A DNA stretch of 64,000 bases from Candidatus Altimarinota bacterium. GTDB lineage: Bacteria > Patescibacteriota > Gracilibacteria > 1-14-2-50-48-13. The translations under genes and the position numbers were made by a program. Below the pieces are notes generated by a model. It saw only the letters and a list, made by a program, of their open reading frames with translations. It was not told the DNA's origin and ran no database searches. The stretch is taken from positions 1-64,000 of the forward strand of contig JBKBWQ010000001.1 in the NCBI GenBank assembly GCA_046314355.1. The letters are read 5' to 3'. Positions 6,339 through 42,984 of this stretch are shown piece after piece; position 1 is the stretch's first letter; each line of letters opens with the position of its first letter.

Positions 6339-6938
6339 TTAGATACCTCCGTTGGCAGTCTGTTCGTAGATAAGTCTAATGACGGAGTATACGATATTGT
6401 AGGAGAAAATAATTCCAACTAGTCCTATAAGTGACCAGGTAATAGCTTTCACAGCTTTACCGGTTTTTCCTGTATCTCCCTTTGAAGAAATATAAAGATA
6501 AGAGTTATATAAGATGTTGATCATGGCTACAAGTCCGGCAATACTCGCGATAATACCTGCTACAAAAGAAATGAGCGCGGGTATTCCAGCATTGTTTGGA
6601 TCATCAAGTATCTGTTGTTTAAAGCTGTTAGGCAAAAGATCTGGAGCATTTGATGGCCTCAGCATATTTAGCGTTGAATCAATTTGGTTCTTTGCATTGT
6701 TTCTGAATTCGGCATTGATGTCTGCTGAACCTGGACAACCTTTTGGAAGAGCATAAGTATTATTACTGCATGGATCAACAGTAGGGGTAGGGGTGGGAGT
6801 AGGATTAGGATTAGGATTAGGAATACCTTGGTCTGTACCGGCACTATCTATGACATCAAGTACATCTGCATATGCATTAGGTAATGTATAGCCTGATAAG
6901 AGAACTATTATTACAGATATTAGAAATTTATTTCTCAT
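6339..6938 (-). CDS. T4SS/VirB2-like pilin (CPR type) with Pro-Asn/Pro-Thr linker
   Basis: Signal peptide; C-terminal TM-(YISSKGD..K..KA.KAI.WSLIGL)-TM pilin pattern. Confidence 0.75.
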   Translation of the reverse strand: MRNKFLISVIIVLLSGYTLPNAYADVLDVIDSAGTDQGIPNPNPNPTPTPTPTVDPCSNNTYALPKGCPGSADINAEFRNNAKNQIDSTLNMLRPSNAPDLLPNSFKQQILDDPNNAGIPALISFVAGIIASIAGLVAMINILYNSYLYISSKGDTGKTGKAVKAITWSLIGLVGIIFSYNIVYSVIRLIYEQTANGGI

Positions 6939-6939
6939 A

Positions 6940-7425
6940 TTATGTTCCAAGGTTAATATCAAGTACAAGACGGACGATAATCCATGCGCTTCCGATCAGT
7001 ACTATACCAATAGCTGCATAGATGATTGCCATGATTCCATTTTTGAATTTTGCAGCATCTCCTTTGGAAAATAGCACACTGATTCCAGCTCTGAGTGCAA
7101 CTATGACAGAGATGATAGAAAAGAATCCAAATATGATATCTGCGATTCTTTTTGGTCCTACATCTAGGAGTTGGACATTTCCTGCTCCTTTTAGATCATA
7201 TGCAGGAGAGGTTTTTCCATCTTCAAGGTAATTCTTTACTTTGGGAGGAAGGGGCACTAATAGTTTGTCGTCATCCCGTAATCCAGGGGTTGTTATACGG
7301 GGAGGAATATTTGTATTACCATTAGGCGTAGCTGCTGCCATTGCATACATCGTAGTAAAGCTCATAGTAAAAATTACTATGAGGAGTGTGACAAAAAAGA
7401 TAAATGATCTGTAGAGAGTATGCAT
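6940..7425 (-). CDS. T4SS/VirB2-like pilin (CPR type)
   Basis: AGISVLFSKGDAAKFKNGIMAIIYAAIGIVLI pilin pattern. Confidence 0.78.
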   Translation of the reverse strand: MHTLYRSFIFFVTLLIVIFTMSFTTMYAMAAATPNGNTNIPPRITTPGLRDDDKLLVPLPPKVKNYLEDGKTSPAYDLKGAGNVQLLDVGPKRIADIIFGFFSIISVIVALRAGISVLFSKGDAAKFKNGIMAIIYAAIGIVLIGSAWIIVRLVLDINLGT

Positions 7426-10986: not shown

Positions 10987-11766
10987 ATGGAAATCAGCGC
11001 AAAGGCAGTAATGGAATTAAGAGCAAAAACTAACGTAAGTATGATGGCTTGTAAAAAAGCTCTTGTACAGGCAAACGGAGATCAGGACGCAGCTATTGAT
11101 ATCCTTAGAAAATCAGGAGAAGCAAAAGCTCTTTCTAAAGCAGATCGAGAGACACATGAGGGTATTATTACTGCATACATTTCTTCAGATAATAAAAAAG
11201 GAGTACTTACACAGGTACTTTGTGAGACTGACTTCGTAGCACGAAGCGATGACTTCATCAATATGGCTGAGGACATCACAAATCATGCTTCAAAGGACGG
11301 AACTGAGGCTGCTAAGGCAGCAGCTGTTGAAAAACTTCAGCAGGCAGTGATCACTCTTGGAGAAAATATCCAGCTTGAGAATGTGGAAGAGCTTACAGGA
11401 GACTTTGTTGGAATGTATATTCATGCAAATAAGAAAGTAGGAGCAATTGTATCTTTTGAAGGAAATATCTCTGAAGAGGCTGCACGAGACGTAGCTATGC
11501 AGGTTGTTGCATCTCAGCCACAGGTAGTAAATCCTGAGGACATGGATTCATCTCTTGTAGAGAAGGAAGCAGAGATCGCAAAGGAGCAGCTCCGAAAGGA
11601 AGGAAAACCTGAGGCTATGCTTGATAAGATTATTGAAGGAAAACTCAAGAAATTTAGAGAAGAGAACGCACTTCTTACACAGGCATTTATCAAGGATCCA
11701 AGCAAGCAGGTAAAGGATACACTTGGTGGAGCGAAGATTATGAAGTTTGTGAGATTTGCAGTGTAG
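10987..11766 (+). CDS. tsf: Elongation factor Ts
   Basis: VMELRAKT..SMMACKKAL, CETDFVA. Confidence 0.97.
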   Translation: MEISAKAVMELRAKTNVSMMACKKALVQANGDQDAAIDILRKSGEAKALSKADRETHEGIITAYISSDNKKGVLTQVLCETDFVARSDDFINMAEDITNHASKDGTEAAKAAAVEKLQQAVITLGENIQLENVEELTGDFVGMYIHANKKVGAIVSFEGNISEEAARDVAMQVVASQPQVVNPEDMDSSLVEKEAEIAKEQLRKEGKPEAMLDKIIEGKLKKFREENALLTQAFIKDPSKQVKDTLGGAKIMKFVRFAV

Positions 11767-11775
11767 TAAATAATA

Positions 11776-11807
11776 GCATGTCATTCCGGGCTTGACCCGG
11801 AACCTAA
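11776..11807. repeat. REP-like palindrome gcatgtcattccgggcttgacccggaacctaa
   Basis: 31/32 match to reverse complement of 36402-36433. Confidence 0.85.
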
Positions 11808-11835
11808 AAGCTCTATCGAAAGGTAGAGCTTTTTT
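11806..11835 (+). terminator. Intrinsic terminator after tsf
   Basis: aaaagctctatc-gaaa-ggtagagctttttt. Confidence 0.8.
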
Positions 11836-11952
11836 GTCGCTAGGCAAGATTTATTTCTACAAATACGACTTTTAGTTATGGTATTAATAAAAGAAGGTGA
11901 CATTGTCTTTGCTGGAAAGCGTAATCGTTCCTTCTTACTAAAGACATAAATA

Positions 11953-12145
11953 TTGACTAATCTAATTAATCAGCTAAGATGCGCTAGATTTCGCGAAAAA
12001 TAGAGAGTTGTGATCATTGAAAAATAGAAATGCTTACGGCAAGTATCTAGTGATTTATTGCAAAATAGAACCCTAGACTACTGGTACCTTGCAGTAAGCG
12101 GTAGTAGTAAGGTTTATTAAATATTATTATATTGGAGGAATTTCA
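11953..12145 (+). promoter_or_regulatory. Sigma70 promoter, structured 5' leader and SD of orphan cassette 1
   Basis: TTGACT-N16-TAAGAT; cgctagat...atctagtg closing helix; GGAGG 7 nt before ATG. Confidence 0.65.
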
Positions 12146-12628
12146 ATGAAAAAATTATTAGTACCTATCTCTATCTTTAGTATCGTTAGCTGTACGCCAG
12201 CAGCACCAAATCTACAGGAACTAAAAGCTCCTATTGTAGTAGCTGCAGCAAAGGATTCTCCTCAAGGAGTTCGTCCTCTTGGAGTAAATCAGATCATAGG
12301 TAAAATCACCCTGAGTGGAGCTAGAGATCTTGAGCAATTAAAAGTGAAAGTTCCTACAGAATTTTCAAATATTAAAGTGTTTCAAGGACCAACTCAACTC
12401 AGTGCCACAGCAGCTCTTCCCGGATTTGATGGAATTATTGCTTTCAGTATGGAGCAGATGATCCCCGACGGTACTAATAAGGAAATTATTATCAGGGCTG
12501 ATACTGACCGGATACAGAAGGATCCTATATCTGGTCAGAGAGAGGTAGTAATACAAATTTATTCAATTAAAGAGAAAGGAAAGGAAGAGAAAATTTTAAA
12601 CCTTGCATTACCGAAAGTGCTTTACTAG
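12146..12628 (+). CDS. Hypothetical lipoprotein (possibly Ig-like beta fold)
   Basis: MKK-hydrophobic-IVSC lipobox-like signal; strong SD. Confidence 0.75.
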   Translation: MKKLLVPISIFSIVSCTPAAPNLQELKAPIVVAAAKDSPQGVRPLGVNQIIGKITLSGARDLEQLKVKVPTEFSNIKVFQGPTQLSATAALPGFDGIIAFSMEQMIPDGTNKEIIIRADTDRIQKDPISGQREVVIQIYSIKEKGKEEKILNLALPKVLY

Positions 12629-12640
12629 CACGAGGTACCT

Positions 12641-12669
12641 AAAGGGACTGTATTTTTACAGTCCCTTTT
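12641..12669 (+). terminator. Intrinsic terminator of cassette 1
   Basis: aaagggactgta-tttt-tacagtcccttttt. Confidence 0.85.
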
Positions 12670-12727
12670 ATATTTGGGATTTTTTCAGTCTCATTCTCAA
12701 TGAATATAACTATAATCATCATTTCTC

Positions 12728-12794
12728 CACTTAAGCTAAGAATACTAATCCTCAGCTTACCTCAAGTCGAAACTCGAAAAAATAAAAGAACTCC
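12728..12794 (+). repeat. 67-bp direct repeat, left copy (duplicate of the O-methyltransferase 5' end with ATG changed to AAG)
   Basis: 63/67 identical to 23911-23977. Confidence 0.9.
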
Positions 12795-13012
12795 ACATAT
12801 AGAGTATCTCTACCTTCTTTTAAACCTCTGTCAGCATTTCTTGACAGCACAATAAAAAATAATTTCTTGTTTTGTATGTGCGTGAGAGTATACCTAGACA
12901 TGTTTAATATTTATGATAATACGTTATTAAAATTGAATCTTTAAAAACTACGACAGTCCATCCGGGAGAAAGACAGGAAAGCACAGAAATCTTAAAGAAT
13001 ACTTTTGTTGAA

Positions 13013-13495
13013 GTGTATGCATCTCTTGTCCGAGATCAGGTACATGAGACTGTAAAAGATATCGATGCAGAATTGAATTCGCTCAGAATACAAATGTTTT
13101 CTTTAGCTCAGCAAATAAATATGCTGGATGAGGGGAGAGATTATCTTCTGCAGAGAATTCTTAGGGAGAGATCTCTGGAGAGAGTGATCACGTATGTACA
13201 TAAGGAGTATGCCGATCGTGGTGATGAGCCTGAATTCAAATCTTTCTATATAAATTTTGAACTATATAAAGGCGATGATCATGAGAAAATTATAGGGTTG
13301 CTCGATAGGTCTGATTGCTATGAAGATACTACAATTGTGAGTGAATCTGAGAATGATGCCGTATTTTATGAACTTATTGAAAAATTTACAAAAGAAGGTG
13401 TAGTATTCTACGACGAAGATTTTCAAGTAATAGATGTAAATATGCTGAGAAAGAAGTGGAATGAGAGTGCCGCAGGGGATGGGGATAAATATTAA
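13013..13495 (+). CDS. Hypothetical acidic protein (start uncertain; frame open back to about 12920)
   Basis: 160-aa ORF; no motif recognised. Confidence 0.6.
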   Translation: MYASLVRDQVHETVKDIDAELNSLRIQMFSLAQQINMLDEGRDYLLQRILRERSLERVITYVHKEYADRGDEPEFKSFYINFELYKGDDHEKIIGLLDRSDCYEDTTIVSESENDAVFYELIEKFTKEGVVFYDEDFQVIDVNMLRKKWNESAAGDGDKY

Positions 13496-13659
13496 AGTAA
13501 AAAAGATAGGACAGATAAGTCTGATGCTATTCTCGTACAATGATTCTTGATCAAAATCTTTAAGAGCACATCGTATATTTAATGCGTGGTGCTCTTTTTT
13601 CATAATGATAGGGATAGAAATATGCTATACTATTCTGATATATCAGTTTTTATACATAT

Positions 13660-14505
13660 ATGCTCAACGAATATTCCTTTCTGGAAAAAATGGGACTTCA
13701 TAAAAATGAAGTAAAGTTATACCTACAGGGACTTGCTATAGGTACTCAAGCTACAAGCGTGTTTGCTAAGAAAACCGGTCTTCCTAGGTCCACAACTCAG
13801 CTCTATCTGCAAAATCTCGTGAAGCTTGGATTTATGTCAAAAACACTTCGTGCAGGAGTGCAGTATTTCACACCGTTCCCTCCCTCTGAGATTGAGAACA
13901 TCATAGATAGCAAAAAGGAAGAGTTAAATGTAATAGGAAATACACTGACAAATATGCTACCTCTTCTCAAGAGTCATCAAAATACGGATTATAATATGTC
14001 CCGAATGACTGTATTTGAAGGAAAGCTTGGAGTACAAAAACTCTTTAAAGATATTGTAGCAACAGGTAAAGAAGTTCTCGTATTTAAATCTCCCTTATAT
14101 CATTTTGATAATCCGGCTCTCCGTAAGATGACGGAATCCTTTATGCTCGAATTGAAGAGAAACGAGATTCCAGTGCGAGCCCTTACTCCAAAAGCCAAAA
14201 AACATAGTGCCGAGTATAGTATAAGCCAAGCTGAATATTATGGTTTTCAAAGACGTTTTATAGAGATGGATATCTATGAATTACCATGTCAGATTTTTGC
14301 CTATGGTGATAAATTGGGAATTATTACAAATGATAGTGAAATACAATGTGTAGTGATCCAAGAAAAATTTCTTACGACGCTCATGTATAGACAGTTTGAG
14401 TACCTATGGTCGGCAGCACTGCCATATCATAAAAAAGTACTAAAGGATGATGATCTTGAAAAGCATGAAGAGCCGTACCGAAAATTCATTCATCCTGAAG
14501 AATAG
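13660..14505 (+). CDS. TrmB-family transcriptional regulator
   Basis: LEKMGL..NE.KLYL..L..G...S..AKKTGLPRST...L..L...G wHTH; FEGK.G.. effector-domain start. Confidence 0.85.
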   Translation: MLNEYSFLEKMGLHKNEVKLYLQGLAIGTQATSVFAKKTGLPRSTTQLYLQNLVKLGFMSKTLRAGVQYFTPFPPSEIENIIDSKKEELNVIGNTLTNMLPLLKSHQNTDYNMSRMTVFEGKLGVQKLFKDIVATGKEVLVFKSPLYHFDNPALRKMTESFMLELKRNEIPVRALTPKAKKHSAEYSISQAEYYGFQRRFIEMDIYELPCQIFAYGDKLGIITNDSEIQCVVIQEKFLTTLMYRQFEYLWSAALPYHKKVLKDDDLEKHEEPYRKFIHPEE

Positions 14506-14535
14506 TCTCCTTTCGAAAGTAAGAAGGATACAATC

Positions 14536-17190
14536 CTACCAATAGGGACTTATATCTCCTATGACAAGTCCGCGAGTAAGTGTATCATTTGTAATAGCAT
14601 TTTTCGTATTAAATTTATAATTCTTCATAAGATTTAATACATATGGGAGGGTAGAGGATGAAGGACGGTAGTGACCTGATCCATTGTTGATTTCTACAAG
14701 TTCCCATGCTTTCGGAGTAAGAGTATTATTCCACATCTCCCATGCTTTTATATCGTTAAACTGTTTTTGATGTTTTTTAAATACGAATTCTCCTGCACCA
14801 AAAACATTATGTCCACCGGCAATCACACTATGGGGTGGACGGCGGGTAGCATTTTCACTGAGATTTTCTTCTAATATTTTAATGGTTTCATCCCAGGAGA
14901 CAGTATAGATAAATTTCAGTATATCCTGGTCAATAATCTTTGATATGCGCACTGCTATTTTATTATACTCACTTTTGTTTCCCAGTATTTCAGTAAGAAT
15001 TTCAAGTTTATTCTCGAGATATTCTTTTTCTTCTTCATACTCTCGAGCGAGCGGGAGAGTATGATCCTTCTTTAAAACATCTGATAGGGTTTTATAATTC
15101 TTGATGAGCGTTTGAAGTTTTTGTACTTTTCTCGCATAATTTTCTTTTACTTTTGCAGCTGTCTGCATTTTCTTTGTATAATGCTTTTTCTGTCCGTTAA
15201 AACTTATAGACTTAAGTCCTTCTTTTTCTGCTTCTGAGAGGTACTCTTCATTTATATGCATCCATATTTCTCTCTCAACACGGGAAGTATTTTCACGCAA
15301 AAGATTCAGTATGATTTGATTCATACCTTCCAAGGTGACATGAGACTTTGACACTGTTCTTTTATCTTTCGGATCAAAAATTTCACAAACAATTTTTCTT
15401 TGGCTCTCTCTCTTTTCTAAAATCTCAGGTAATTGCTGAACATATTGAAATTGATTTGAATCATAGTAGGATAATCCTCCAAATTTTATCTCTCGGATTA
15501 CATCCATAATGATATGTTGTATATCCAGAGCAATTCCCTCATCTTTTCCAGTATATCCTTTTTCTTTTCGAGAGGGAAAATGAGATACAGTTTTCATCTT
15601 CTTTTGAAAGTCCTGAATCTTATGTACATAGTCTACGGTTTTCTTAAGTACAGTTTCTAAATCCTTTTCAGGAATAGCATACGCCTCTTTTGCTCTTGTG
15701 AGATGAGGGTTCTGTGTCAGAAAGTTTTGTAGATTTTCAATAGCTTGGCCAATACTCTCTTCAGAAGAATCGGTACTAAATACGTCATGAGCATTATTTA
15801 GATTTATTATCTGATTTGAATGTTTTTTTACGAGCTGCTCCCAGATAGATTTATTCTTCTCTTTCTCATAAATGTTATAGAGATCATTATCTATAATACC
15901 GAGCGAATTATTCAAAAAAGGTTTTACATCAGAAGAGAAATACTCGTCTTTAAAGGAAAAAAGAACTTGTAGGATAGAGCTGTCATAGATTGCTTCCTGA
16001 AGACCTGCAATGACTTTTTTATCTTCTTCCGTATAGAGCATGTCGTCATTATGAAATCGTAGACCTTTTCGATGCTTTAGTGCTTTCTTCAAGATAAATC
16101 GATAATCATTTCCTGAAGGGAGTTTGAGGTTATAGATGATTTCAACATGCGGAAGATGTCCTAGATCACCTATCCCTGAACCCGTAGCCCACTTTAAAAA
16201 ATTCATATCGATAAGACCATTGGCTTCTAAAGTACATCCTGCGACTAAATCATGCTCTACTGCATAATTATATTTGAGAAGCTGATTAAAGTGATGTGGA
16301 TAATGTCCAAGTGTATTGCGACCATAGGTTTTGATTTCATAGATATAGGGCATGGTCTTCTCCGGTTGTTCACGTATCATGGGAACATCAAATCTCACTT
16401 CACTATTTCGTTGTGCCTTATAGCCTCCTTTGAGGAGTTCAGTTACGATAATTAGTGCAAAGGGAGGAGCCTTAAAAACATCTGTAAGAACCTTAGGAGA
16501 TACACCCTCATGAGCAGTCCAGCCCCCATCTGCATAAGAAAAAGCACTCAAAAATCTTGCCTTCTGTCTCTCGGGAAGTTTCTCTGCGAGTTGCTCAGGC
16601 CCGGAGAAAGAACGTAAAAATTCCTCAATACCTTCAAATGTAAATTCTAAAGGAGGAAGGCTCGTCGTTATTTTTTCTAAACCTTGTTCCGTAAGCTTAT
16701 TGATCCGTGTAATTTCAAAGAGTGCACCGTGTAATAGTCCTGATTTATCTAGAGCATTCGAGAGTTTATGTATGGATGATTTTATCTGTTTATAAAATTT
16801 TTCCTGTAAATGAATAGGTAGTTTTGCATAGGCATGTTGGAATTTGTCTGCAAGTTCCTGTTCAATTTCCTCCTCGGATGAGAGAGTATCTTCCAAAAAC
16901 TTTTTGTAATCAACGGGTATTTGATTCTTTGTCTCTCGCAGCTGTGTTAAAAGGATATTTCTATCCTTCTCCAATTCTGCTATTGCACTTGGTTTGGTAC
17001 CTTTTGAATTTTTATTATTTCTATAATATGACTCTATTTCTGAACTTACATTGTAGAGACGGGCTGCAATATCATTGATAATAGTTTCAATATTTTTTTT
17101 ACCATCTACTAAATTTCTATCAACTTCACGTACTAGTTGATCTTCTAAACTCACAGATTCAGATACAATTTGTTTAGTTTGAATTTTCAT
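14536..17190 (-). CDS. Large hypothetical protein with PD-(D/E)xK-like motif and C-terminal HS...AGE...N.SGHY.P domain
   Basis: 884-aa ORF; RFDVP...YEIKTY...NQLLKY; HSVIAGGHNVFGAGEF...INNGSGHYRP. Confidence 0.75.
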   Translation of the reverse strand: MKIQTKQIVSESVSLEDQLVREVDRNLVDGKKNIETIINDIAARLYNVSSEIESYYRNNKNSKGTKPSAIAELEKDRNILLTQLRETKNQIPVDYKKFLEDTLSSEEEIEQELADKFQHAYAKLPIHLQEKFYKQIKSSIHKLSNALDKSGLLHGALFEITRINKLTEQGLEKITTSLPPLEFTFEGIEEFLRSFSGPEQLAEKLPERQKARFLSAFSYADGGWTAHEGVSPKVLTDVFKAPPFALIIVTELLKGGYKAQRNSEVRFDVPMIREQPEKTMPYIYEIKTYGRNTLGHYPHHFNQLLKYNYAVEHDLVAGCTLEANGLIDMNFLKWATGSGIGDLGHLPHVEIIYNLKLPSGNDYRFILKKALKHRKGLRFHNDDMLYTEEDKKVIAGLQEAIYDSSILQVLFSFKDEYFSSDVKPFLNNSLGIIDNDLYNIYEKEKNKSIWEQLVKKHSNQIINLNNAHDVFSTDSSEESIGQAIENLQNFLTQNPHLTRAKEAYAIPEKDLETVLKKTVDYVHKIQDFQKKMKTVSHFPSRKEKGYTGKDEGIALDIQHIIMDVIREIKFGGLSYYDSNQFQYVQQLPEILEKRESQRKIVCEIFDPKDKRTVSKSHVTLEGMNQIILNLLRENTSRVEREIWMHINEEYLSEAEKEGLKSISFNGQKKHYTKKMQTAAKVKENYARKVQKLQTLIKNYKTLSDVLKKDHTLPLAREYEEEKEYLENKLEILTEILGNKSEYNKIAVRISKIIDQDILKFIYTVSWDETIKILEENLSENATRRPPHSVIAGGHNVFGAGEFVFKKHQKQFNDIKAWEMWNNTLTPKAWELVEINNGSGHYRPSSSTLPYVLNLMKNYKFNTKNAITNDTLTRGLVIGDISPYW

Positions 17191-17420
17191 GACTCTCTTA
17201 TATCAATTTACCTAAAAGTTATCACACTATTTATAGTCATAGTATTATATCATGGAGAGAGAAAATTTGATATGTTATGGCTTTGTTTTATGAATATATT
17301 TTCTCTTTAAACTATGATAGTGCCACTAATTAATGCTGTCAGTAGAAATATGTGTTTACAGTAAATAGACTACGTGATTTGACACGTATATCCTGTATAT
17401 TTTTATAATATAATTATTTC

Positions 17421-17609
17421 TGATACTATGCCGTTGTCTTCAATGAAGGGAATAGAAATATTCGCCGTCAGAGAGATTTCAGTTGATCTTTCACAACGAG
17501 GGAAAAATAATCTAAAGCAGAAATGCCCGGACGATTGTGATATATTGAAATGTACCATTGAAGCAATAATTATGTATGTATTTTACCTCTGTGAGGTTAG
17601 GAGAACGAT
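17421..17609 (+). promoter_or_regulatory. Promoter, four-way-junction leader motif (copy A) and SD of cassette 2
   Basis: TG-a-TACTAT extended -10; 32 nt identical to 23036-23067; AGGAG before ATG. Confidence 0.75.
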
Positions 17610-18383
17610 ATGACTCAGAATTTAAATATTACCGCTATTACTGAAGAACTCAAAGTGTATGGTGAGAATCATAAATTAAGAGGACTTGAAGGCCGTATTT
17701 TTAGAGGGCTTGATATTGCAGGAATGCTTGCTGTAGAGACTACAAGGAAACTTGCAGAACAGATAGCAGATAAAATGCAGGTTTCAATGAGTGATCTTGA
17801 AAAAGTTACCAATGAACTTCATGTGGGTACCATTTGGGAATACTCTGATAAATTTCTCAGCAGCAAGGATGCCGCGGTAAATGTATGGATGATCCTTGCC
17901 GAGAGATGTATAGGGCCAAAAATAAAACCTGGCGACCTATCCTCTGAAGAATTTATCGAAGATACAAAGAGAGTTATCACTGAACTCAGTGAAGCAGCAG
18001 AGGATCCGCAGACATTTTTAACTCAAGCTGTTGAAAACCAGGTTATACAGGCTAAAAAAGGCTTTGAGATAGTGGATGGTGTAGCTTTTATAAAGCAGGA
18101 AGGATCCTTCTTACATGCTGCTATTGCTGGTTTGAAATCAGGAATTTCTGAAAGAGTCAGTGATAATGAAACTCTTTTTCACGTGGGAGCTCAGACACTT
18201 GATTTGAATAAGGTTGCGCAGCAGTTTTCTCTTAAAGAAGTCGAAAGAGAAGATCGCGGCAGGGTAGTTACTTTCTATCAGAATAGTGAAGATCAGGATG
18301 TAATCAAAAAATTATATCCGGGTTACGGAATTGTCTTTAACTCTAGGGAAGTCGCTATCGCATTGGCAAAGACTGCATTGTAA
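17610..18383 (+). CDS. Hypothetical protein (257 aa)
   Basis: Long ORF with strong SD; no family recognised. Confidence 0.8.
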   Translation: MTQNLNITAITEELKVYGENHKLRGLEGRIFRGLDIAGMLAVETTRKLAEQIADKMQVSMSDLEKVTNELHVGTIWEYSDKFLSSKDAAVNVWMILAERCIGPKIKPGDLSSEEFIEDTKRVITELSEAAEDPQTFLTQAVENQVIQAKKGFEIVDGVAFIKQEGSFLHAAIAGLKSGISERVSDNETLFHVGAQTLDLNKVAQQFSLKEVEREDRGRVVTFYQNSEDQDVIKKLYPGYGIVFNSREVAIALAKTAL

Positions 18384-18416
18384 ATTATTTTTTCTCGTTG
18401 ATAAGGAGGTGATCAT

Positions 18417-18446
18417 GCCGCTCATAGTATTTGAGCGGCTTTTTTT
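18417..18446 (+). terminator. Intrinsic terminator of cassette 2
   Basis: gccgctca-tagtatt-tgagcggc-ttttttt. Confidence 0.85.
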
Positions 18447-18696
18447 ATACATAGTATATTGAGCAAAGGTATTTTTCTCATAACTTCTCTTTTATTTACG
18501 CTCTTTAATTACTTTATGTTGCCAGAAAAAGTTGGCAGCTCTTTTTAACGTGTATGTACTTACCTTTTTTGCGCTTGACATAATATGCATAAATTATTTT
18601 ACATTGTTATTAATCTAATTATAATCACTCCACTTCTAGTCTATATAGTGCTTAAGAAACATTATAAATAGATATCATATTTAAATAATTACATTT

Positions 18697-20496
18697 ATGT
18701 ATAACAAAAAAACATCGTACGGTTTTTCCGAAAAGGTGTTAGAGAAAAAGATATTTAAAAGAATGTCGCCTCAACTAGAGTCCTTTACGATTCAACATCA
18801 AAAACTAGCTATTAATACTGCTCTGCTCGGAGCGCTTCTTCCATCTGTTCATGTATCCAGAAGTGAGACTGAAAAGAAAAAAATGAATATTGTTATGACA
18901 GCTCTTGCTCCAAGTGTACCGGAAGTCAGACCTCAAAGTCCTGAACAAAATCAGATGTCTGAAGAATTTTCTATATTTCTTTCAGATTTTAATGCAGTAC
19001 TCTCCGCAGATCGAGCAGAACATAAAGGTAAGAATGAATGGTATATACAGATAGAGAATTTGAAAAAATCTGCGTATTACGGAGAGTTTCTAAAAAAGTT
19101 TATAAGAACCGTTGATGAGGTATTGAACTTAGAAAAAAATAAGCACGATACAAAGATCCGAGGTGTACTTTCTTTTATATGTTCTAGGTTTTTGTACACT
19201 GAGAGTACAGGAGATATGCATGATAATACAATCCTCCAGGAACAGATCCTTTTATTTGGAAAGCTGATACAGAATGGATATATATTTGAGCACTCTTTTT
19301 CAGATTTTACACGGACTCTAAATGCAAATATAGAGAGTTTATCGCTCAGGAATATGAATTATATTCTTTATTCTATCGAAAGATCTCCGCAGCGTATACA
19401 ACGTACAAAGACAGGTATCAATGTGATATCAGCTATAGGTCCAAAAATGATAAGTGAGTTTAATAAAATGATGTCTGGAGATCGCCCAAAAGCGTATGAA
19501 TTCACTACAGAGACAAGCCATGATTTGACTCCAGATAATGTTATTCATTTTCTAAAGAATATATTGAAGATTACAACGTATACAAAGAAAGATTTTCACA
19601 CAGCGATGGAATTTCTTGTTCAAAGAAAAGACAGATTAGAGGAAAAAGATCTCAGATCATTATTTTGGATATTAAAAAAAGCAATGGTAAATATCGATCA
19701 GTGGCTTGATCCTTTTATGGGTCAAACTATGGAAGTTATACGGAAACTAAAAGTTTCGGATATGATATCTATGTATTATCAATATGTGATGTCCCATGGA
19801 AACAATCCTCAGATTCTCACTCTATTTCATGAAAAACTGAAGGAAAACAGTACTTCTCTTAAAAGTAATGAGATTAGCATATTATTTTATGTACATGCAT
19901 ATGATAAAAATAAAGATATGGATCTTCAAAAGATACTTCTGCAGAAAATAACTGATAAAAATCTTCACATATCTCCCACTGATATCATTTCCATTGTGAG
20001 AGCATTTGCGATCTTAAATATCTCTGTACCAAATCATATCAACCAGCTCTATCAGACACATATAAGAAGTATGAAAGATACATCTACACATCTTGAGAAG
20101 TCCATTGCAAGTTGGATGCGGACAGAAGTGAGTAAGCTTGGAGTGTTTTCATTTGAAAGCAATAAAATGAATAGCTTTGGTGTAGAAATGGATATTGTCG
20201 TAAGCAATGAATTTAATAAGCTCAATATTGAATGTGATGGAGTGATGTATCACAATACCAATTCAGAGAAACATCTAAAAGATGACCATAGAGATGCTCT
20301 TGTGCGAGAAGCAGGATTTGGAGTAATGAGAGTTACGGACAAGGAATTTTATAGTGATCCTGAACATCTACGACTACGCAGAAGATTACAGCGTTTTCTG
20401 AAATTAAAAGGAATGATAAAACCTACAAAGTATATTCCGTCCGGAAAACATCAACGCTCTATAAAAGAGGAGAATGAGCTCTCTAAAACGGAGTAA
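18697..20496 (+). CDS. Helical-repeat protein with C-terminal RAP/DUF559-like endonuclease domain
   Basis: EMDIVV...LNIECDGVMYH...D..RD..V...GFGVMRV; preceding helical repeat-like segments. Confidence 0.75.
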   Translation: MYNKKTSYGFSEKVLEKKIFKRMSPQLESFTIQHQKLAINTALLGALLPSVHVSRSETEKKKMNIVMTALAPSVPEVRPQSPEQNQMSEEFSIFLSDFNAVLSADRAEHKGKNEWYIQIENLKKSAYYGEFLKKFIRTVDEVLNLEKNKHDTKIRGVLSFICSRFLYTESTGDMHDNTILQEQILLFGKLIQNGYIFEHSFSDFTRTLNANIESLSLRNMNYILYSIERSPQRIQRTKTGINVISAIGPKMISEFNKMMSGDRPKAYEFTTETSHDLTPDNVIHFLKNILKITTYTKKDFHTAMEFLVQRKDRLEEKDLRSLFWILKKAMVNIDQWLDPFMGQTMEVIRKLKVSDMISMYYQYVMSHGNNPQILTLFHEKLKENSTSLKSNEISILFYVHAYDKNKDMDLQKILLQKITDKNLHISPTDIISIVRAFAILNISVPNHINQLYQTHIRSMKDTSTHLEKSIASWMRTEVSKLGVFSFESNKMNSFGVEMDIVVSNEFNKLNIECDGVMYHNTNSEKHLKDDHRDALVREAGFGVMRVTDKEFYSDPEHLRLRRRLQRFLKLKGMIKPTKYIPSGKHQRSIKEENELSKTE

Positions 20497-20507
20497 ATAG
20501 TATAAAT

Positions 20508-20534
20508 AAAAAACCCTCATCCCGAGGGTTTTTT
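20508..20534. terminator. Bidirectional intrinsic terminator
   Basis: aaaaaaccctc-atccc-gagggtttttt between convergent genes. Confidence 0.85.
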
Positions 20535-20540
20535 ATTTAT

Positions 20541-22238
20541 TTACTGAAGAGTAGTCAGGAAATCTTTAAAGATTTTTCTTTTCACTACTGGCTTCAAATC
20601 AATAAAATCTTTGCTGATTGAACTCCTCATTATATCTGCTGTAAGATCTTTCATGATCATATCAATGGCTGGAGATAATTGATCGTTCGTTGGAGTAAAA
20701 TCGATTATCCAGTTATCGTAGAATTTTTTATCATCCGCACGTTCTCCAAAGTAAGAGATGATGATATCGATATATTGAAAAATATTTTTCTGTAAGGCAA
20801 CTGTTTCAGGATAGGTGAGTCCTTCCTGATATATTCCGAAATCCTTAAGTAGATCGCTAAATACTGTAGAGATAATAGTACGAATGTTTTGCGCTTTTAT
20901 GTATGTTTCAATATACGCTTTGTTCTTCATTACTTCATCTATTTTATGCTCTATGACATCTACAGAATTTGATTCATTAATTGCCTGAGTAATGAGTCCA
21001 TGATTTTCTGCAACAAATCGGTAAGGTGTATTTTGAGGATAAATTGTAGAAGATACTTCATTTGCTGTTTTACCTTCTGAATTAATTACGAGCGCTTCAC
21101 GAAGTCTGTATCCTTGAGGAATTTTGTTAAAAGAGCTTGTTCGTGAATTATTTTCTGTCCAGTTTTTTCTTTCATTATTTCCTTTTTTAGAGGAAATGTA
21201 GTTTCTCACATTTCTCTCAACCAATTCTTTTGCTGAATTTGTCTGAGAATTTACTTTTATAATATGAATTAATTCTGAAGGTTTTCTATCATATGTGGTT
21301 TCTACTTCTTCTTTGTTTTCTCTCTCGTGCGTTGGGTTCTGTAGCACTTTAGAAGCAGCTGCCTGTTGAGCAAGTATATTAAAGATTGAATTTACTGCTG
21401 CTATGTAATCACCGTCAGTATTTTTTTCTGTATCAAGCTCAAAGGTATTATCTAGCATATCCCCATTTTCATTGATTCGTATAACTAGTCCTTTAGATAA
21501 TGTATTTCTGAGATTTACATCAGTAAGTTTGCTCATCTTCGTAATCTGATCATAAGTAAGCAAAGTTGATTTCCAAATATTTTCACCTTTTGGAAGATGT
21601 TCTTTCGCTATGTTTGCGTAGAAATAGTATTCGTTATTAATCTCTACAGGTCCTGGCAACTCTACTAGTTTATATTCATTTTTAAGAAGAGCAGAATCTA
21701 TCCAGGATTTCCCATTTTGCATTGTAAAATCTACAGATCGTTTGATGGAATGCACCTGGTCTTTTGCATATTTTTTTAAATACTGAGCAAGGATATAATC
21801 CACTAAGGACTCTTTGTTTAAGTTACTCGCATTCTCTTCAGAGAGATAACCCTTGTTTACAAGAAGGTTTTTAAAGGCATTCGTAAGTGAACTGTCCATC
21901 ACATCTTCGTCAGAATGGCTGCCTGCTATCTTATCTTTCAATCCTTTTTGCGTAGGACGTAGAACTATGGTGTCTGCAATCTTATCTTTTATAAGAATGT
22001 AGTTTGTCTTGGCTTTGCTATTATGAAAAATATACCCCTTGAGAAGACGTGCCTCATCCTCATCTCGTAATAAGTGATCAAAATTTTTTCCAAGATCGGA
22101 ATTGATAAAATAATTTTTTCGGAGAGCTCTTATCTTATCCTGGGAAAAAAGTGAAGTAAGTTCTGCAGAGAGCGTTTCATAATTATTATTGTATGTTCGC
22201 TTCTCGGGAAACTTAGGTGAATAGTGTGTCGAGATCAT
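20541..22238 (-). CDS. Hypothetical protein (565 aa)
   Basis: Long ORF; no motif recognised. Confidence 0.75.
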   Translation of the reverse strand: MISTHYSPKFPEKRTYNNNYETLSAELTSLFSQDKIRALRKNYFINSDLGKNFDHLLRDEDEARLLKGYIFHNSKAKTNYILIKDKIADTIVLRPTQKGLKDKIAGSHSDEDVMDSSLTNAFKNLLVNKGYLSEENASNLNKESLVDYILAQYLKKYAKDQVHSIKRSVDFTMQNGKSWIDSALLKNEYKLVELPGPVEINNEYYFYANIAKEHLPKGENIWKSTLLTYDQITKMSKLTDVNLRNTLSKGLVIRINENGDMLDNTFELDTEKNTDGDYIAAVNSIFNILAQQAAASKVLQNPTHERENKEEVETTYDRKPSELIHIIKVNSQTNSAKELVERNVRNYISSKKGNNERKNWTENNSRTSSFNKIPQGYRLREALVINSEGKTANEVSSTIYPQNTPYRFVAENHGLITQAINESNSVDVIEHKIDEVMKNKAYIETYIKAQNIRTIISTVFSDLLKDFGIYQEGLTYPETVALQKNIFQYIDIIISYFGERADDKKFYDNWIIDFTPTNDQLSPAIDMIMKDLTADIMRSSISKDFIDLKPVVKRKIFKDFLTTLQ

Positions 22239-22332
22239 AGAAAAGATTAATATGTTAATATTATAATAACATAAAAATATAGAAGTCGCAATTAGCGTCT
22301 TCTATATGAATTTAAGCAACTTGATTCTCAGA

Positions 22333-22851
22333 TTATAAATATTTGAGAATCATATGCATTATGTTTGTATCTAGGCTTTCTCCTTTCAAGAAACCTTGAA
22401 TTATTGCGGAATGTTCATTCCAGATATTATCTTTCTGTTGTTTATCCGAAGCTGTCCTGAGACCAATGTAGAACGCTTTTGCAAGCTTCTCGCTGTACTC
22501 TGGATAACTTGCAGATAAATAAGCAAAAAGATTCTTCAACATGAGATCTATACTCGTCTCTGGTATAGTAATCTTAAAATCTATACCTTTGTAGTCTTGA
22601 GAGAGTATGCGCGCCTGAAGTAGAGACCATAGCGAACTCAGCAGTGTATAGTTACTTTGATGAGTCGACTGAGGAAAATACTTTTCTACTCTCCAGTCTA
22701 ATAGTTTCACAATAGATCCAAATTGACCGGTTTTAATCCTATTGAGCTCCTTATACCATATTTTTGGAATAGGTACTTCTAGCTTTGCTATAAGATTCAA
22801 TATTACTAAAACTGTATATACAGTTTGATAATAGAGAATATCTTTTTTCAC
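22333..22851 (-). CDS. Hypothetical protein (GTG start after AAGGAGGT)
   Basis: Strong SD aaggaggt-aaaaat-GTG at 22851; terminator-like hairpin at 22277-22306. Confidence 0.65.
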   Translation of the reverse strand: MKKDILYYQTVYTVLVILNLIAKLEVPIPKIWYKELNRIKTGQFGSIVKLLDWRVEKYFPQSTHQSNYTLLSSLWSLLQARILSQDYKGIDFKITIPETSIDLMLKNLFAYLSASYPEYSEKLAKAFYIGLRTASDKQQKDNIWNEHSAIIQGFLKGESLDTNIMHMILKYL

Positions 22852-23001
22852 ATTTTTACCTCCTTTTTGTATACTTAGGCATATTACAATTTTTTTTAAA
22901 AATAGCAATAATATATTAAGTTGTTAACATTTTCTGTCACTAAGTGTAAATTTTGTTTTCTATAAACAAAAATAGCGAATTTACAAATACATGTTATATT
23001 T

Positions 23002-23173
23002 TTGAGTATATTTTATATTTCTGATAGTATACCGCTGTCTTCAATGAAGGGAATAGAAATATTCGCCTCACGGAGAATGCAATGATCTTTTACAGTAAGT
23101 GAGAAATGTAAATTTAAAAGAATTTATTAATTGTTATTTTTGCTTAAAGTAAGCAAAGAAAAGGAGGCTTCAT
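23002..23173 (+). promoter_or_regulatory. Promoter, four-way-junction leader motif (copy B) and SD of cassette 3
   Basis: TTGAGT-N17-TAGTAT with TG extension; shared 32-nt core; AAGGAGG before ATG. Confidence 0.78.
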
Positions 23174-23785
23174 ATGGCAGGAATGGGAGTATCGTATAGC
23201 GTAAGTACCGATAGAGAACTCTCTGTAGATGAAAGAGTTACTACTCAGACTTTGCTCAACAGAAGGTCACAGATTCATCAAAGACTTCAAGTACTCAGAG
23301 AGTTAGATATGAGTATTGAATTTAAGAATCAGTGTCCAAAGTGTGCTTATCAGGTAACTCTGGAAGAAGTGTTAGAAGGTTTTGATCTAAGTAAGACCTA
23401 TGATACTAGAACCGAGTGTCCTAAATGTAGAGAAAAGTTTCAGCCTGAAATTGAATTTAATCATTTGGCTCATAACGGATCTTATACGTTCTATTGTGAA
23501 ACCCAGGCTCTACAAGCCCTAGAGGATGAATATGAAAATATGAATCCTATGGAAATTTTAGAGGATAATCCGGGACTCTTTATCTCTAGCTTAGTACATT
23601 TTGGTGCGATACCGAATGCATTTAAGATGATTGACACTGAGTATAACTGGAAATTTAAATACAATAAATGGAAAGAAAGAGCCATTCCGTACTTAAATAT
23701 CATACCTGTAGGAGTACTTGCCGAAGTTTTAGGTGTAAGTAACTCTAGTCTCTATAAGTTAAAGAAATTGCACGCAAAAGAATAG
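23174..23785 (+). CDS. Hypothetical zinc-ribbon protein with putative C-terminal HTH
   Basis: CPKC...CPKC; VGVLAEVLGVSNSSLYKL HTH-like tail. Confidence 0.75.
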   Translation: MAGMGVSYSVSTDRELSVDERVTTQTLLNRRSQIHQRLQVLRELDMSIEFKNQCPKCAYQVTLEEVLEGFDLSKTYDTRTECPKCREKFQPEIEFNHLAHNGSYTFYCETQALQALEDEYENMNPMEILEDNPGLFISSLVHFGAIPNAFKMIDTEYNWKFKYNKWKERAIPYLNIIPVGVLAEVLGVSNSSLYKLKKLHAKE

Positions 23786-23811
23786 TTTCTCACTCTGAAA
23801 AATAAATCAGT

Positions 23812-23840
23812 ACCACTGCATATGTATGCGGTGGTTTTTT
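23812..23840 (+). terminator. Intrinsic terminator of cassette 3
   Basis: accactgcata-tg-tatgcggtggt-ttttt. Confidence 0.85.
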
Positions 23841-23910
23841 ATTATGTAAAAATACTATCTTTTGATATGATCCAGATCTTTCTCAATTATCTCGACTTAT
23901 TTCCACTCTT

Positions 23911-23977
23911 CACTTAAGCTAAGAACACTAATCATCAGCTTTCCTCATGTCGAAACTCGAAAAAATAAAAGAACTCC
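23911..23977 (+). repeat. 67-bp direct repeat, right (intact) copy
   Basis: Matches 12728-12794; contains the start codon of the O-methyltransferase. Confidence 0.9.
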
Positions 23978-25507: not shown

Positions 25508-26053
25508 TTATGCTGCTTGTTTTTCTTCTGGACTAGATGGTGCTTGGGTCGGACTTGGCTGTAAAGGAGTTGGGACCGTATTTATGGGTGTTGGTACCGG
25601 TGCTACTGTAGGTACTGCCTGTACTGGAGCTAACGCAGGATTAGGATTAGGATTAGGATTAGGATTAGGAGCTGGAGTCAAAACTGGAGTTGTAGCTACT
25701 GGCTGTGCTTGCACAGGAGTGCTCTCAGGCTTTGTGCTTGCGCCGAAGAGTTTATCATAAAGACCATTGTATGCTTTCTGGTAAGCTCCTTCTGCAAAAT
25801 GTTTCGTACCTGTGATTCCTTTTTCAAGAGTCTCCTTGTTCATCTTAAGGTTTTTTACTTTAGAAAGAGCAGTATTGATTTTTTCAGAATCCTTTACCTT
25901 CTGTACCTGAGTATTGATAGCACTTTTTAATTTTCCAAAAAGTGAAGAATGAGCTGGCTTCTGTTCAATGTTTGAAGAAACTATCTGTGGAGATTGTTCT
26001 GGTGTTTTTGGTGCTGCTGGTTCTAGTGTAACCGGAGTTTCGCTAAGTGCCAT
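25508..26053 (-). CDS. Hypothetical Pro-rich protein with PN repeat
   Basis: Low-complexity Pro/Thr/Asn tail; bidirectional terminator at 25476-25508. Confidence 0.7.
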   Translation of the reverse strand: MALSETPVTLEPAAPKTPEQSPQIVSSNIEQKPAHSSLFGKLKSAINTQVQKVKDSEKINTALSKVKNLKMNKETLEKGITGTKHFAEGAYQKAYNGLYDKLFGASTKPESTPVQAQPVATTPVLTPAPNPNPNPNPNPALAPVQAVPTVAPVPTPINTVPTPLQPSPTQAPSSPEEKQAA

Positions 26054-34710: not shown

Positions 34711-34714
34711 AGAT

Positions 34715-35001
34715 TTTTCTTCACCTTGCCGGTGGGGCGTCACTTTTGTGACCAAAAGGGAACCAAAAGTCTTGGGAAAGGAGAAAAGCGTCTGGCAGAG
34801 GGGGTGTTTTCTAAAAGTAATCAGACGCTTCTCCTCCCCCAAACCCCCTGGGAAGGTGTGGTCTACACGTGGCTCATGGGCTGCACGGCTCTTTGAGCGA
34901 TGTACCTGCGGTACATGTCATAGGCTCAAGGGGGGGGAGAGTCTATGAGCTATCCCCCTGAGAAGGGGGATACAGGGGGTTTGAGCCCGAGAACTCTCAT
35001 C
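34715..35001. repeat. Mosaic palindromic intergenic repeat, copy 3
   Basis: Aligns with copies at 1-352 and 2671-3000. Confidence 0.9.
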
Positions 35002-35248
35002 GCTGCCCGCGTGATCCAGCGCACTATAGTATTGAAGTAACATATTCGATGTTAATTTTGATCCTTATTCTTCAGACTCTCAAATCAGAACTGCAGGTTC
35101 CGTACATATAAATTTCATGGATACTATTGCTCGAGTCTAAATTAGTTATTGAAAGTTATAAACCTAACAGTCTCTTTCATTCCTTCTCTTCACATTTTTC
35201 TCCCCTTCGTGTACTATATCTCTACGTTACCCTTTTCTTACCCGCTCT

Positions 35249-42489: not shown

Positions 42490-42767
42490 TTCTTTTGTAA
42501 CCAAAAGAAACAAAAGTTTTGGGGGAGGAGAAAAGCGTCTAGCAGGATTCCGTGAGATCTACATGTGATCAGACGCTTCTCCTACCCCAAACCCCCAGGG
42601 ACGGTGAGGTCTAGATAAAGACTCGAGTTACTAGTTACTAGTGACTGTCACTAGCCACTAGTAACTATGCACCCTGACATGTAGCTGAGATACATGTCAG
42701 GGCTCGGGGAAGGCCTATGAGTGCCTATCCCCCTGAGAAGGGGGACCCAGGGGGGTTGAGCCCGAGA
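42490..42767. repeat. Mosaic palindromic intergenic repeat, copy 4 (diverged)
   Basis: Same stems with substituted loop and expanded actagt heptamer tract. Confidence 0.85.
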
Positions 42768-42984
42768 AAATATGAACTGCGGGATCCAAACACAAAAGTT
42801 TCGGAAATGCTTTCACTTAAGCCAAAAATAATAAAGAGTAATTTTATTGCGTCGCATTATGGTACTGCCCTTATTTCTGTCAATTCCTTTTCCCCGCATT
42901 TTCCATATATATCTGTAAAATAAATTGAGTTTCCTGTAAAAAGCAGGTACTATCTTTACCGTTCTATTCATATAACCCGATTGC

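Follow-up and report, generated by a model that had tools for sequence, protein, structure and literature searches.

Two genes that bear no resemblance to each other, carried by an ultrasmall hot-spring bacterium, are preceded by the same 32 nucleotides (nt), and the question raised by this locus is whether the shared sequence is a new structured RNA of the riboswitch kind or a more ordinary regulatory element. The window, that is, the whole stretch of DNA analysed, covers the first 64,000 nt of contig JBKBWQ010000001.1 of a Candidatus Altimarinota bacterium (Gracilibacteria; assembly GCA_046314355.1). A preliminary description had read the repeat as a four-way-junction RNA backed by a compensatory base change. 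The answer favoured here, with somewhat better than even confidence, is that a promoter-plus-5'-leader cassette of about 160 nt was duplicated in front of two unrelated orphan genes (ORFans) of a genomic island, the core of this cassette being a cis-regulatory site common to both. No positive support was obtained for a riboswitch or a four-way junction, and the repeat, which is real, most likely has this ordinary explanation. The parts of the repeat are as follows.

17353..17510, + strand: homologous promoter-leader block of about 160 nt, copy 1 (repeat detection, identity counts and MAFFT alignment)
22954..23109, + strand: homologous promoter-leader block, copy 2 (repeat detection, identity counts and MAFFT alignment)
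17415..17466, + strand: best-kept 52-nt block of copy 1, containing the -10-like box and the 32-nt core (blastn-short and identity counts)
23016..23067, + strand: best-kept 52-nt block of copy 2 (blastn-short and identity counts)
17435..17466, + strand: identical 32-nt core, copy 1 (pattern search)
23036..23067, + strand: identical 32-nt core, copy 2 (pattern search)

The two cores match exactly (0 mismatches), as the preliminary description had it, and they are the only two in the whole genome (1.69 Mb in 28 contigs), in which the reversed control pattern gave 0 matches. With blastn-short, identity extends to the 52-nt block at 94.2% (E 4e-16), and repeat detection in the window delimits 114 nt at 73% identity around the core. 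Counted without gaps, the core is identical at 32/32 positions, the block at 49/52 and the upstream flank (17353-17414 in copy 1) at 34/62, the background for this flank being 19.3 +/- 3.5 with a maximum of 33 when the same two intergenic regions are set against each other in 203 other registers. On the 3' side of the core, 30 of about 52 nt still match if two 1-nt indels are allowed. The repeat unit is thus an old homology of about 160 nt, the centre of which has been kept far better than its flanks: these have drifted to 55-58% identity whereas the core stands at 32/32, which argues for a constraint on the sequence itself, beyond pairing alone. Given a per-site identity of 0.55-0.73 as in the flanks, the chance of 32 straight matches is 5e-9 to 4e-5.

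The unitigs of the source sequencing run (Logan, run X1) break precisely at the 32-mer. The depth of the 32-mer unitig is 50, for about 20-22 in each flanking contig, and is slightly above the expectation for two copies; this excess may reflect a third copy in the sample or merely k-mer noise. No sequence variants or joints were found in the source-run contigs across the repeat region.

The homology does not stop at what would be transcribed. It extends about 80 nt 5' of the core into promoter territory, which is more than a bare RNA element would need, and each copy contains an extended -10-like box.

17421..17429, + strand: TGn-extended -10-like box TGATACTAT, copy 1 (read from sequence)
23022..23030, + strand: TGn-extended -10-like box TGATAGTAT, copy 2, with a -35-like TTGAGT 17 nt 5' of it (read from sequence)

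Both TGnTAnTAT boxes end 5 nt 5' of the core, where the preliminary description had placed them; that of copy 1 was missed by the promoter consensus scan, its two hexamers together scoring below 9/12. Both copies sit in divergent intergenic regions, on the strand of their downstream gene, and the end of the core lies at a comparable distance from the ATG in the two cases (143 nt for copy 1, 106 nt for copy 2). Under sigma-70 rules, transcription begins about 7 nt 3' of the -10 hexamer, and the start site of copy 1 would lie near G17436. The homology of the promoter region with its -10 box, the same orientation, the similar distance to the gene, the occurrence of two copies only and their location within one island together argue for a duplicated promoter-leader cassette.

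According to this arrangement, the 52-nt block would comprise the extended -10 box followed by roughly the first 30 transcribed bases, and the 32-nt core, from about -1 to +31, would put both island genes under one control. The form favoured for this control is an operator overlapping the start site and bound by a sequence-specific protein, since the core carries two small perfect palindromes, CTTC-AAT-GAAG and GAATA-GAAA-TATTC, and the island encodes a helix-turn-helix (HTH) regulator. Candidate binders encoded by the island are this TrmB-like HTH protein (13660-14505) and the zinc-ribbon protein P0002, the product of the gene downstream of copy 2. Neither GAATA-N4-TATTC, with 8 genome sites for about 5 expected, nor CTTC-N3-GAAG is over-represented elsewhere in the genome. 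Alternatively, the same bases could act once transcribed, the nascent RNA forming a GAAA-capped hairpin at its 5' end that would either be bound by a protein or stabilise the message. The protein-binding site that the preliminary description had offered among several possible functions is therefore retained as a live part of the favoured reading; the new riboswitch that it had offered beside it is unsupported.

The RNA fold was assessed on both copies. It is possible to draw all four helices proposed in the preliminary description (P1 to P4), 93% of cells being paired, and the alignment confirms that P1 carries a U-A to C-G change. The four-way junction is nevertheless not the favoured fold, as its energy is -16.2 kcal/mol against -20.7 kcal/mol for the minimum free energy (MFE) structure in copy 1 and -8.2 against -15.5 kcal/mol in copy 2 (ViennaRNA), that is, 4.5 and 7.3 kcal/mol worse. 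In copy 2, P1 contributes -0.9 and P4 -0.3 kcal/mol. In the RNAalifold consensus and in both single-sequence MFE structures, one long GAAA-capped hairpin replaces P2 plus P3, with the extra G of copy 1 placed in its bulge.

17444..17470, + strand: GAAA-capped hairpin UGA.GG.GAAUA-GAAA-UAUUC.CC.(G)UCA, copy 1 (ViennaRNA and RNAalifold)
23045..23070, + strand: the same GAAA-capped hairpin, copy 2 (ViennaRNA and RNAalifold)

This is the sole hairpin predicted in both MFE structures and the sole element that the models suggest to be robust. Compared with dinucleotide shuffles, the stability of the fold appears marginal, with z of -2.16 for copy 1 and -1.76 for copy 2; 9 and 10 of 200 shuffles, respectively, gave a fold of equal or greater stability. 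The covariation is no more telling: among the 22 proposed pairs in the two-sequence alignment, 1 is compensatory, 2 show one-sided changes and 3 are broken in copy 2, and 263 of 500 column shuffles equal the observed covariation scores. The compensatory change in P1 is real and single, and it carries no statistical weight. The position of P1 raises a further difficulty, because its 5' strand (17432-17437) starts 3 nt after the -10 hexamer (17424-29); with a start near G17436, just 2 of the 6 bases of this strand would be in the transcript, and P1 would be fully transcribed only if an upstream promoter were used. Copy 1 has such a candidate promoter (TTGACA at 17379-84 and TATAAT at 17404-09, with a 19-nt spacer), whereas copy 2 has no -10 box matching this upstream TATAAT. 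With the junction above the MFE, shuffles doing as well and the 5' strand of P1 probably for the most part untranscribed, the claim of a riboswitch-like four-way junction backed by a compensatory change is not supported; the models point to a single extended hairpin inside P1 as the consensus.

Known families and further copies were sought at several scales. No Rfam 15 family reached its gathering score in the window, in agreement with the preliminary description, which had recognised no known riboswitch, and at E<=10 the surroundings of each copy gave just unrelated noise of small nucleolar RNA and small RNA families, differing between the copies. A covariance model of the motif (R1; 74 positions, 15 pairs) was used beside sequence patterns. 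A third copy was not found in the organism's own genome by the pattern with up to 3 mismatches, by blastn-short, by core 16-mers with up to 2 mismatches or by R1 at E<=10. The pattern with up to 3 mismatches was found in 0 of 60 relatives, and R1 matched 0 of 3 genomes of the family and order. Across 150 genomes of the class, R1 gave weak matches in 18 (per-genome E<=1), the best one at 25.3 bits and E 0.003. None of the seven that were aligned retains the core, and the two best were rejected as copies, both lying inside open reading frames (ORFs). The scan for a wider family proposed in the preliminary description therefore yielded no third copy in the genome, the relatives or the class.

Large collections were searched as well. 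A degenerate 29-nt core pattern had 0 matches in the species-representative genome collection, and a degenerate core pattern had 0 in viral contigs. The search of the phage collection gave 0 matches, and that of the plasmid collection 5 short ones (E 0.3-0.9), none of them significant. In metagenome contigs, a degenerate 22-nt pattern hit four loci. Three of these resemble GC-richer coding sequence, have no flank similarity and were rejected. The fourth, positions 16-39 of contig L015, is identical to the core over 24 nt at the end of an unrelated AT-rich contig; it lies inside a long open frame of the opposite strand, glycosyltransferase-like or tetratricopeptide-repeat-like when read by eye, and likewise has no flank similarity. 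It was judged a chance match, although the prior odds of one were about 1 in 100. Neither further copies, in the genome, its relatives and the collections, nor covariation, against shuffles, were thus found, two outcomes that the preliminary description had itself named as speaking against its proposal. From the absence of more copies in so poorly sampled a lineage, one may conclude that this is no widespread class of element, but not that it lacks a function. The only public sequencing run found to contain this DNA is a hot-spring DNA metagenome, which is probably its source; no RNA run is listed with it. Among the publications listed on riboswitches, Patescibacteria and the candidate phyla radiation, none bears on the motif.

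Both copies lie in a segment that three genomes of the same family do not have.

11767..23946, no strand: lineage-specific 12.2-kb insertion holding both motif copies (tblastn synteny and GC content)
12724..12794, + strand: left 71-nt direct repeat, a decayed copy of the methyltransferase gene 5' end in which ATG became AAG
23907..23977, + strand: right 71-nt direct repeat, the upstream region plus the first 31 nt of the O-methyltransferase gene, whose ATG is at 23947

In all three family relatives (3/3), tblastn placed the methyltransferase gene and then the D-Ala-D-Ala carboxypeptidase gene (dacA) after the homologue of the gene at 10987-11766. The gap at the insertion site measures 39 nt, about 110 nt and about 1.1 kb in these relatives, for 12.2 kb here. 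The GC content is 0.33-0.36 in the bins from 14 to 24 kb and 0.40-0.41 in the neighbouring bins, and the two 71-nt direct repeats, which are 93% identical, flank the low-GC, ORFan-bearing part of the insertion. Since the insertion is absent from the three relatives, low in GC and bordered by direct repeats, both copies probably lie inside a horizontally acquired island of about 11 kb. Its gene content includes the TrmB-type HTH protein, a DUF559/MTES_1575 endonuclease-like protein and several ORFans. No tRNA gene was found in the 64-kb window. A nearby histidyl-tRNA synthetase is closest to those of Patescibacteria metagenome-assembled genomes (Candidatus Uhrbacteria, Nealsonbacteria, Kuenenbacteria and others).

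The genes beside the two copies are all ORFans.

17610..18383, + strand: P0001, 257 aa, the gene 3' of copy 1, from an ORFan family of three known members
23174..23785, + strand: P0002, 203 aa, the gene 3' of copy 2, an ORFan with two CxxC pairs, zinc-ribbon-like
14536..17190, - strand: gene of an 884-aa ORFan, divergent, to the left of copy 1
22333..22908, - strand: gene of a 191-aa ORFan, divergent, to the left of copy 2

P0001 and P0002 are unrelated (BLASTP E 0.58), as had been proposed, and a terminator-like hairpin follows P0001 at 18417-18439. Searches of Pfam, NCBIfam, PHROGs and PADLOC assigned neither the downstream nor the divergent proteins to any family of note. For P0001 and P0002 there is no sign of a role in metabolism or transport, which genes controlled by a riboswitch would be expected to have, and the list of downstream genes that the preliminary description had called for consists of two ORFans with no link to a metabolite. 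A single P0001 homologue was found among 5.8 billion protein clusters (P0004, 43% identity) and a single one in 400 genomes of the class (genome G184, 40% identity), whereas P0002 has none in the protein clusters. The homologue in G184 begins about 50 nt after an ORF for a treble-clef zinc-finger protein, which is unrelated to P0002, and the motif is absent upstream of it, R1 giving at most 11 bits there without filtering. For P0004, the metagenome and viral collections yielded no related locus. The three known members of the family (17610-18383; L097, 1492-2250; P0004) share 40-45% identity, and P0004 has an additional C-terminal domain of about 85 aa.

From a three-sequence alignment, AlphaFold gave a confident model of P0001 (predicted local distance difference test, pLDDT, 87; predicted template modelling score, pTM, 0.80), in which the N-terminal half is predicted to be helical and the C-terminal half alpha/beta and faintly DHHA1-domain-like. 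Its best matches in the PDB are weak and DHH/DHHA1 phosphoesterase-like (E>=1e-3, template modelling scores of 0.2-0.32). For P0002, the AlphaFold model is unusable (pLDDT 38) and the protein atlas search gave no usable match.

Another ORFan of the island, the 599-aa P0003 (18697-20496), has a C-terminal DUF559/MTES_1575 domain with a Vsr-like endonuclease fold and a strong promoter-like site, TTTACA-16-TATAAT, at 18598-18625. The 565-aa ORF beside it has a weak NucC/DUF6602-like match. The island may be defence-related.

Several points weigh against the duplicated-cassette reading. The two palindromes are unlike each other, an arrangement seldom met in a single dimeric operator, and the G-U pairs in P1 and P4, together with the position of the indel in the bulge of the hairpin, hint mildly at selection on the RNA. 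Identity at 32/32 positions could also result from a short, recent tract of gene conversion, without any function. No integrase, recombinase or transposase was detected by Pfam among the scanned island ORFs of at least 160 aa. Finally, the order counts 4 genomes only, and the lack of homologues reflects this thin sampling as much as true absence.

A first rival reading makes the element a structured cis-acting RNA of the 5' untranslated region (UTR), either a riboswitch or a leader that binds a protein or stabilises the message and is centred on the GAAA-capped hairpin. This is unlikely, and a true ligand-binding riboswitch, as one form of it, is very improbable. The GNRA-capped hairpin common to both MFE structures speaks for such an RNA, as do the compensatory P1 pair and, in P1 and P4, the G-C/G-U and A-U/G-U changes on one side of a pair; with these G-U pairs, the fold can form from the + strand only. 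Moreover, a UCUUC near the 5' end can pair with the GGAGA or GGAGG found at either ribosome-binding site, and its CUUC tract would have GAAG and the Shine-Dalgarno sequence as alternative partners; having no Rfam match, the RNA would be new if real. The energy cost of the junction, the modest z, the broken pairs and the shuffles all count the other way, together with a P1 that adjoins the -10 box, downstream genes that are ORFans and neither metabolic nor transporter genes, the lack of copies in the 150 class genomes, the species-representative genomes and the metagenomes, and the spacer without motif before the P0001 homologue in G184. A more specific version is distinctly unlikely: a new, island-borne cis-regulatory RNA whose GNRA-capped 5' hairpin, along with the junction beside it, would serve as the recognition site of a protein or small molecule, whose CUUC would alternate between the local helix and the ribosome-binding site, and through which two defence-like or accessory genes would answer one signal, the relatives being missing because the order is so thinly sampled.

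That the core is under no selection at all, its identity being due to a short, recent tract of gene conversion over 32-52 nt that came after an old duplication of the promoter, is quite unlikely. That there are just two copies, on one strand of one island and separated by 5.6 kb, would favour conversion, identity breaks off sharply at the 3' end of the core and no population variants were seen in the source run; yet the conserved tract coincides with the -10 box and the hairpin and palindrome elements, and a conversion of 30-50 nt between flanks of 55-58% identity would be hard to initiate. There is only a slim chance that the copies are recombination or mobile-element sites, att-like or resolution sites bracketing as direct repeats a nested 5.6-kb module (17467-23035). 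The island around them does have direct repeats at its own borders, and nuclease-like domains are near (DUF559/MTES_1575 in P0003, the weak NucC-like match in the 565-aa ORF). No recombinase, integrase or transposase was detected among the scanned island ORFs, however, a target duplication would hardly show such graded identity (55% / 94% / 58%), both copies keep a promoter-like geometry to the gene start, and no Logan contig joins across the module. Least credible of all, a conserved leader peptide would start at the ATG of the core (17443 and 23044) and read MKGIEIFA... in both copies. The frame is open over 8 shared codons in both, and that of copy 1 overlaps the start of P0001 as ATGA; the ATG is however not preceded by a Shine-Dalgarno sequence, the peptides of 56 and 13 aa have nothing in common beyond the identical DNA, and the zero synonymous differences point to a constraint on nucleotides rather than codons.

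The duplicated cassette may be compared with several known systems. In mobile islands and prophages, several genes share one promoter-operator design. The resemblance lies in a promoter-proximal block reused before unrelated genes of one element, in a conserved site from -10 to about +30 with palindromic sub-sites and in a regulator gene located in the island, whereas here the two palindromes are unlike, the copies are only two, the regulator is only a candidate and the island has no recognisable phage or conjugation genes. Stabilising 5' stem-loops, such as the hairpin of the ompA 5' UTR and the 5' stabilisers of Bacillus, depend on structure and not on sequence. Both leaders here likewise have a stable hairpin within the first 35 nt or so of the predicted transcript, but the sequence is identical at 32/32 positions and the 5' end is a prediction from sequence.

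Riboswitches of the junction type (the four-way junction of SAM-I, the three-way junctions of the purine and thiamine pyrophosphate classes) are all in Rfam. Like them, the present element lies in a 5' UTR and may fold into several helices, with a GNRA loop, conserved junction-like bases and more variable outer helices. It differs by the missing Rfam match, a junction that is not the favoured fold, the lack of phylogenetic spread and covariation, downstream genes that are ORFans and a P1 that would collide with the -10 box. As for the island itself, genomic islands delimited by direct repeats, in which the end of a gene is duplicated (att-type duplication), are familiar. This one resembles them in its 71-nt repeats of 93% identity, one of which covers the 5' end of the methyltransferase gene, in its low GC and ORFans and in its absence from relatives, whereas no integrase was detected and the 5' end of a protein gene, instead of the 3' end of a tRNA gene, served as target.

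If the favoured reading is true, the locus illustrates routine biology, namely the reuse of a promoter and leader inside an acquired island. It also calls for caution, since perfect identity and drawable helices in two paralogous promoters are not evidence of a riboswitch. Its value is modest and lies in marking a clean lineage-specific insertion of 11-12 kb and two putatively co-controlled orphan genes in an ultrasmall hot-spring bacterium. To our knowledge, almost nothing is known of gene regulation in this group, and a mapped operator or leader in Patescibacteria would be a usable first handle on it.

Two other kinds of repeats occur in the window. A GC-rich dispersed repeat of about 300 nt is found at 62-355, 2732-2969, 34714-35004 and 42492-42768 and at about 20 further places on contig C1. 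It contains internal inverted repeats, e.g., GGGGGAGGAGAAAAGCGTCTG with its complement, and one copy blasted against the genome gave 24 rows on both strands, at 76-93% identity. It has no Rfam match at gathering score and could be an element resembling miniature inverted-repeat transposable elements or a structured RNA family. Tandem hexanucleotide runs of the AGGATT/AGGGGT type are located at 6771-6828 and 25625-25682 inside two minus-strand ORFs, in which they would encode a low-complexity protein repeat tract; one of these ORFs (6339-6968) matches PF18895, a family of type IV secretion system pilins (E 3.7e-6).

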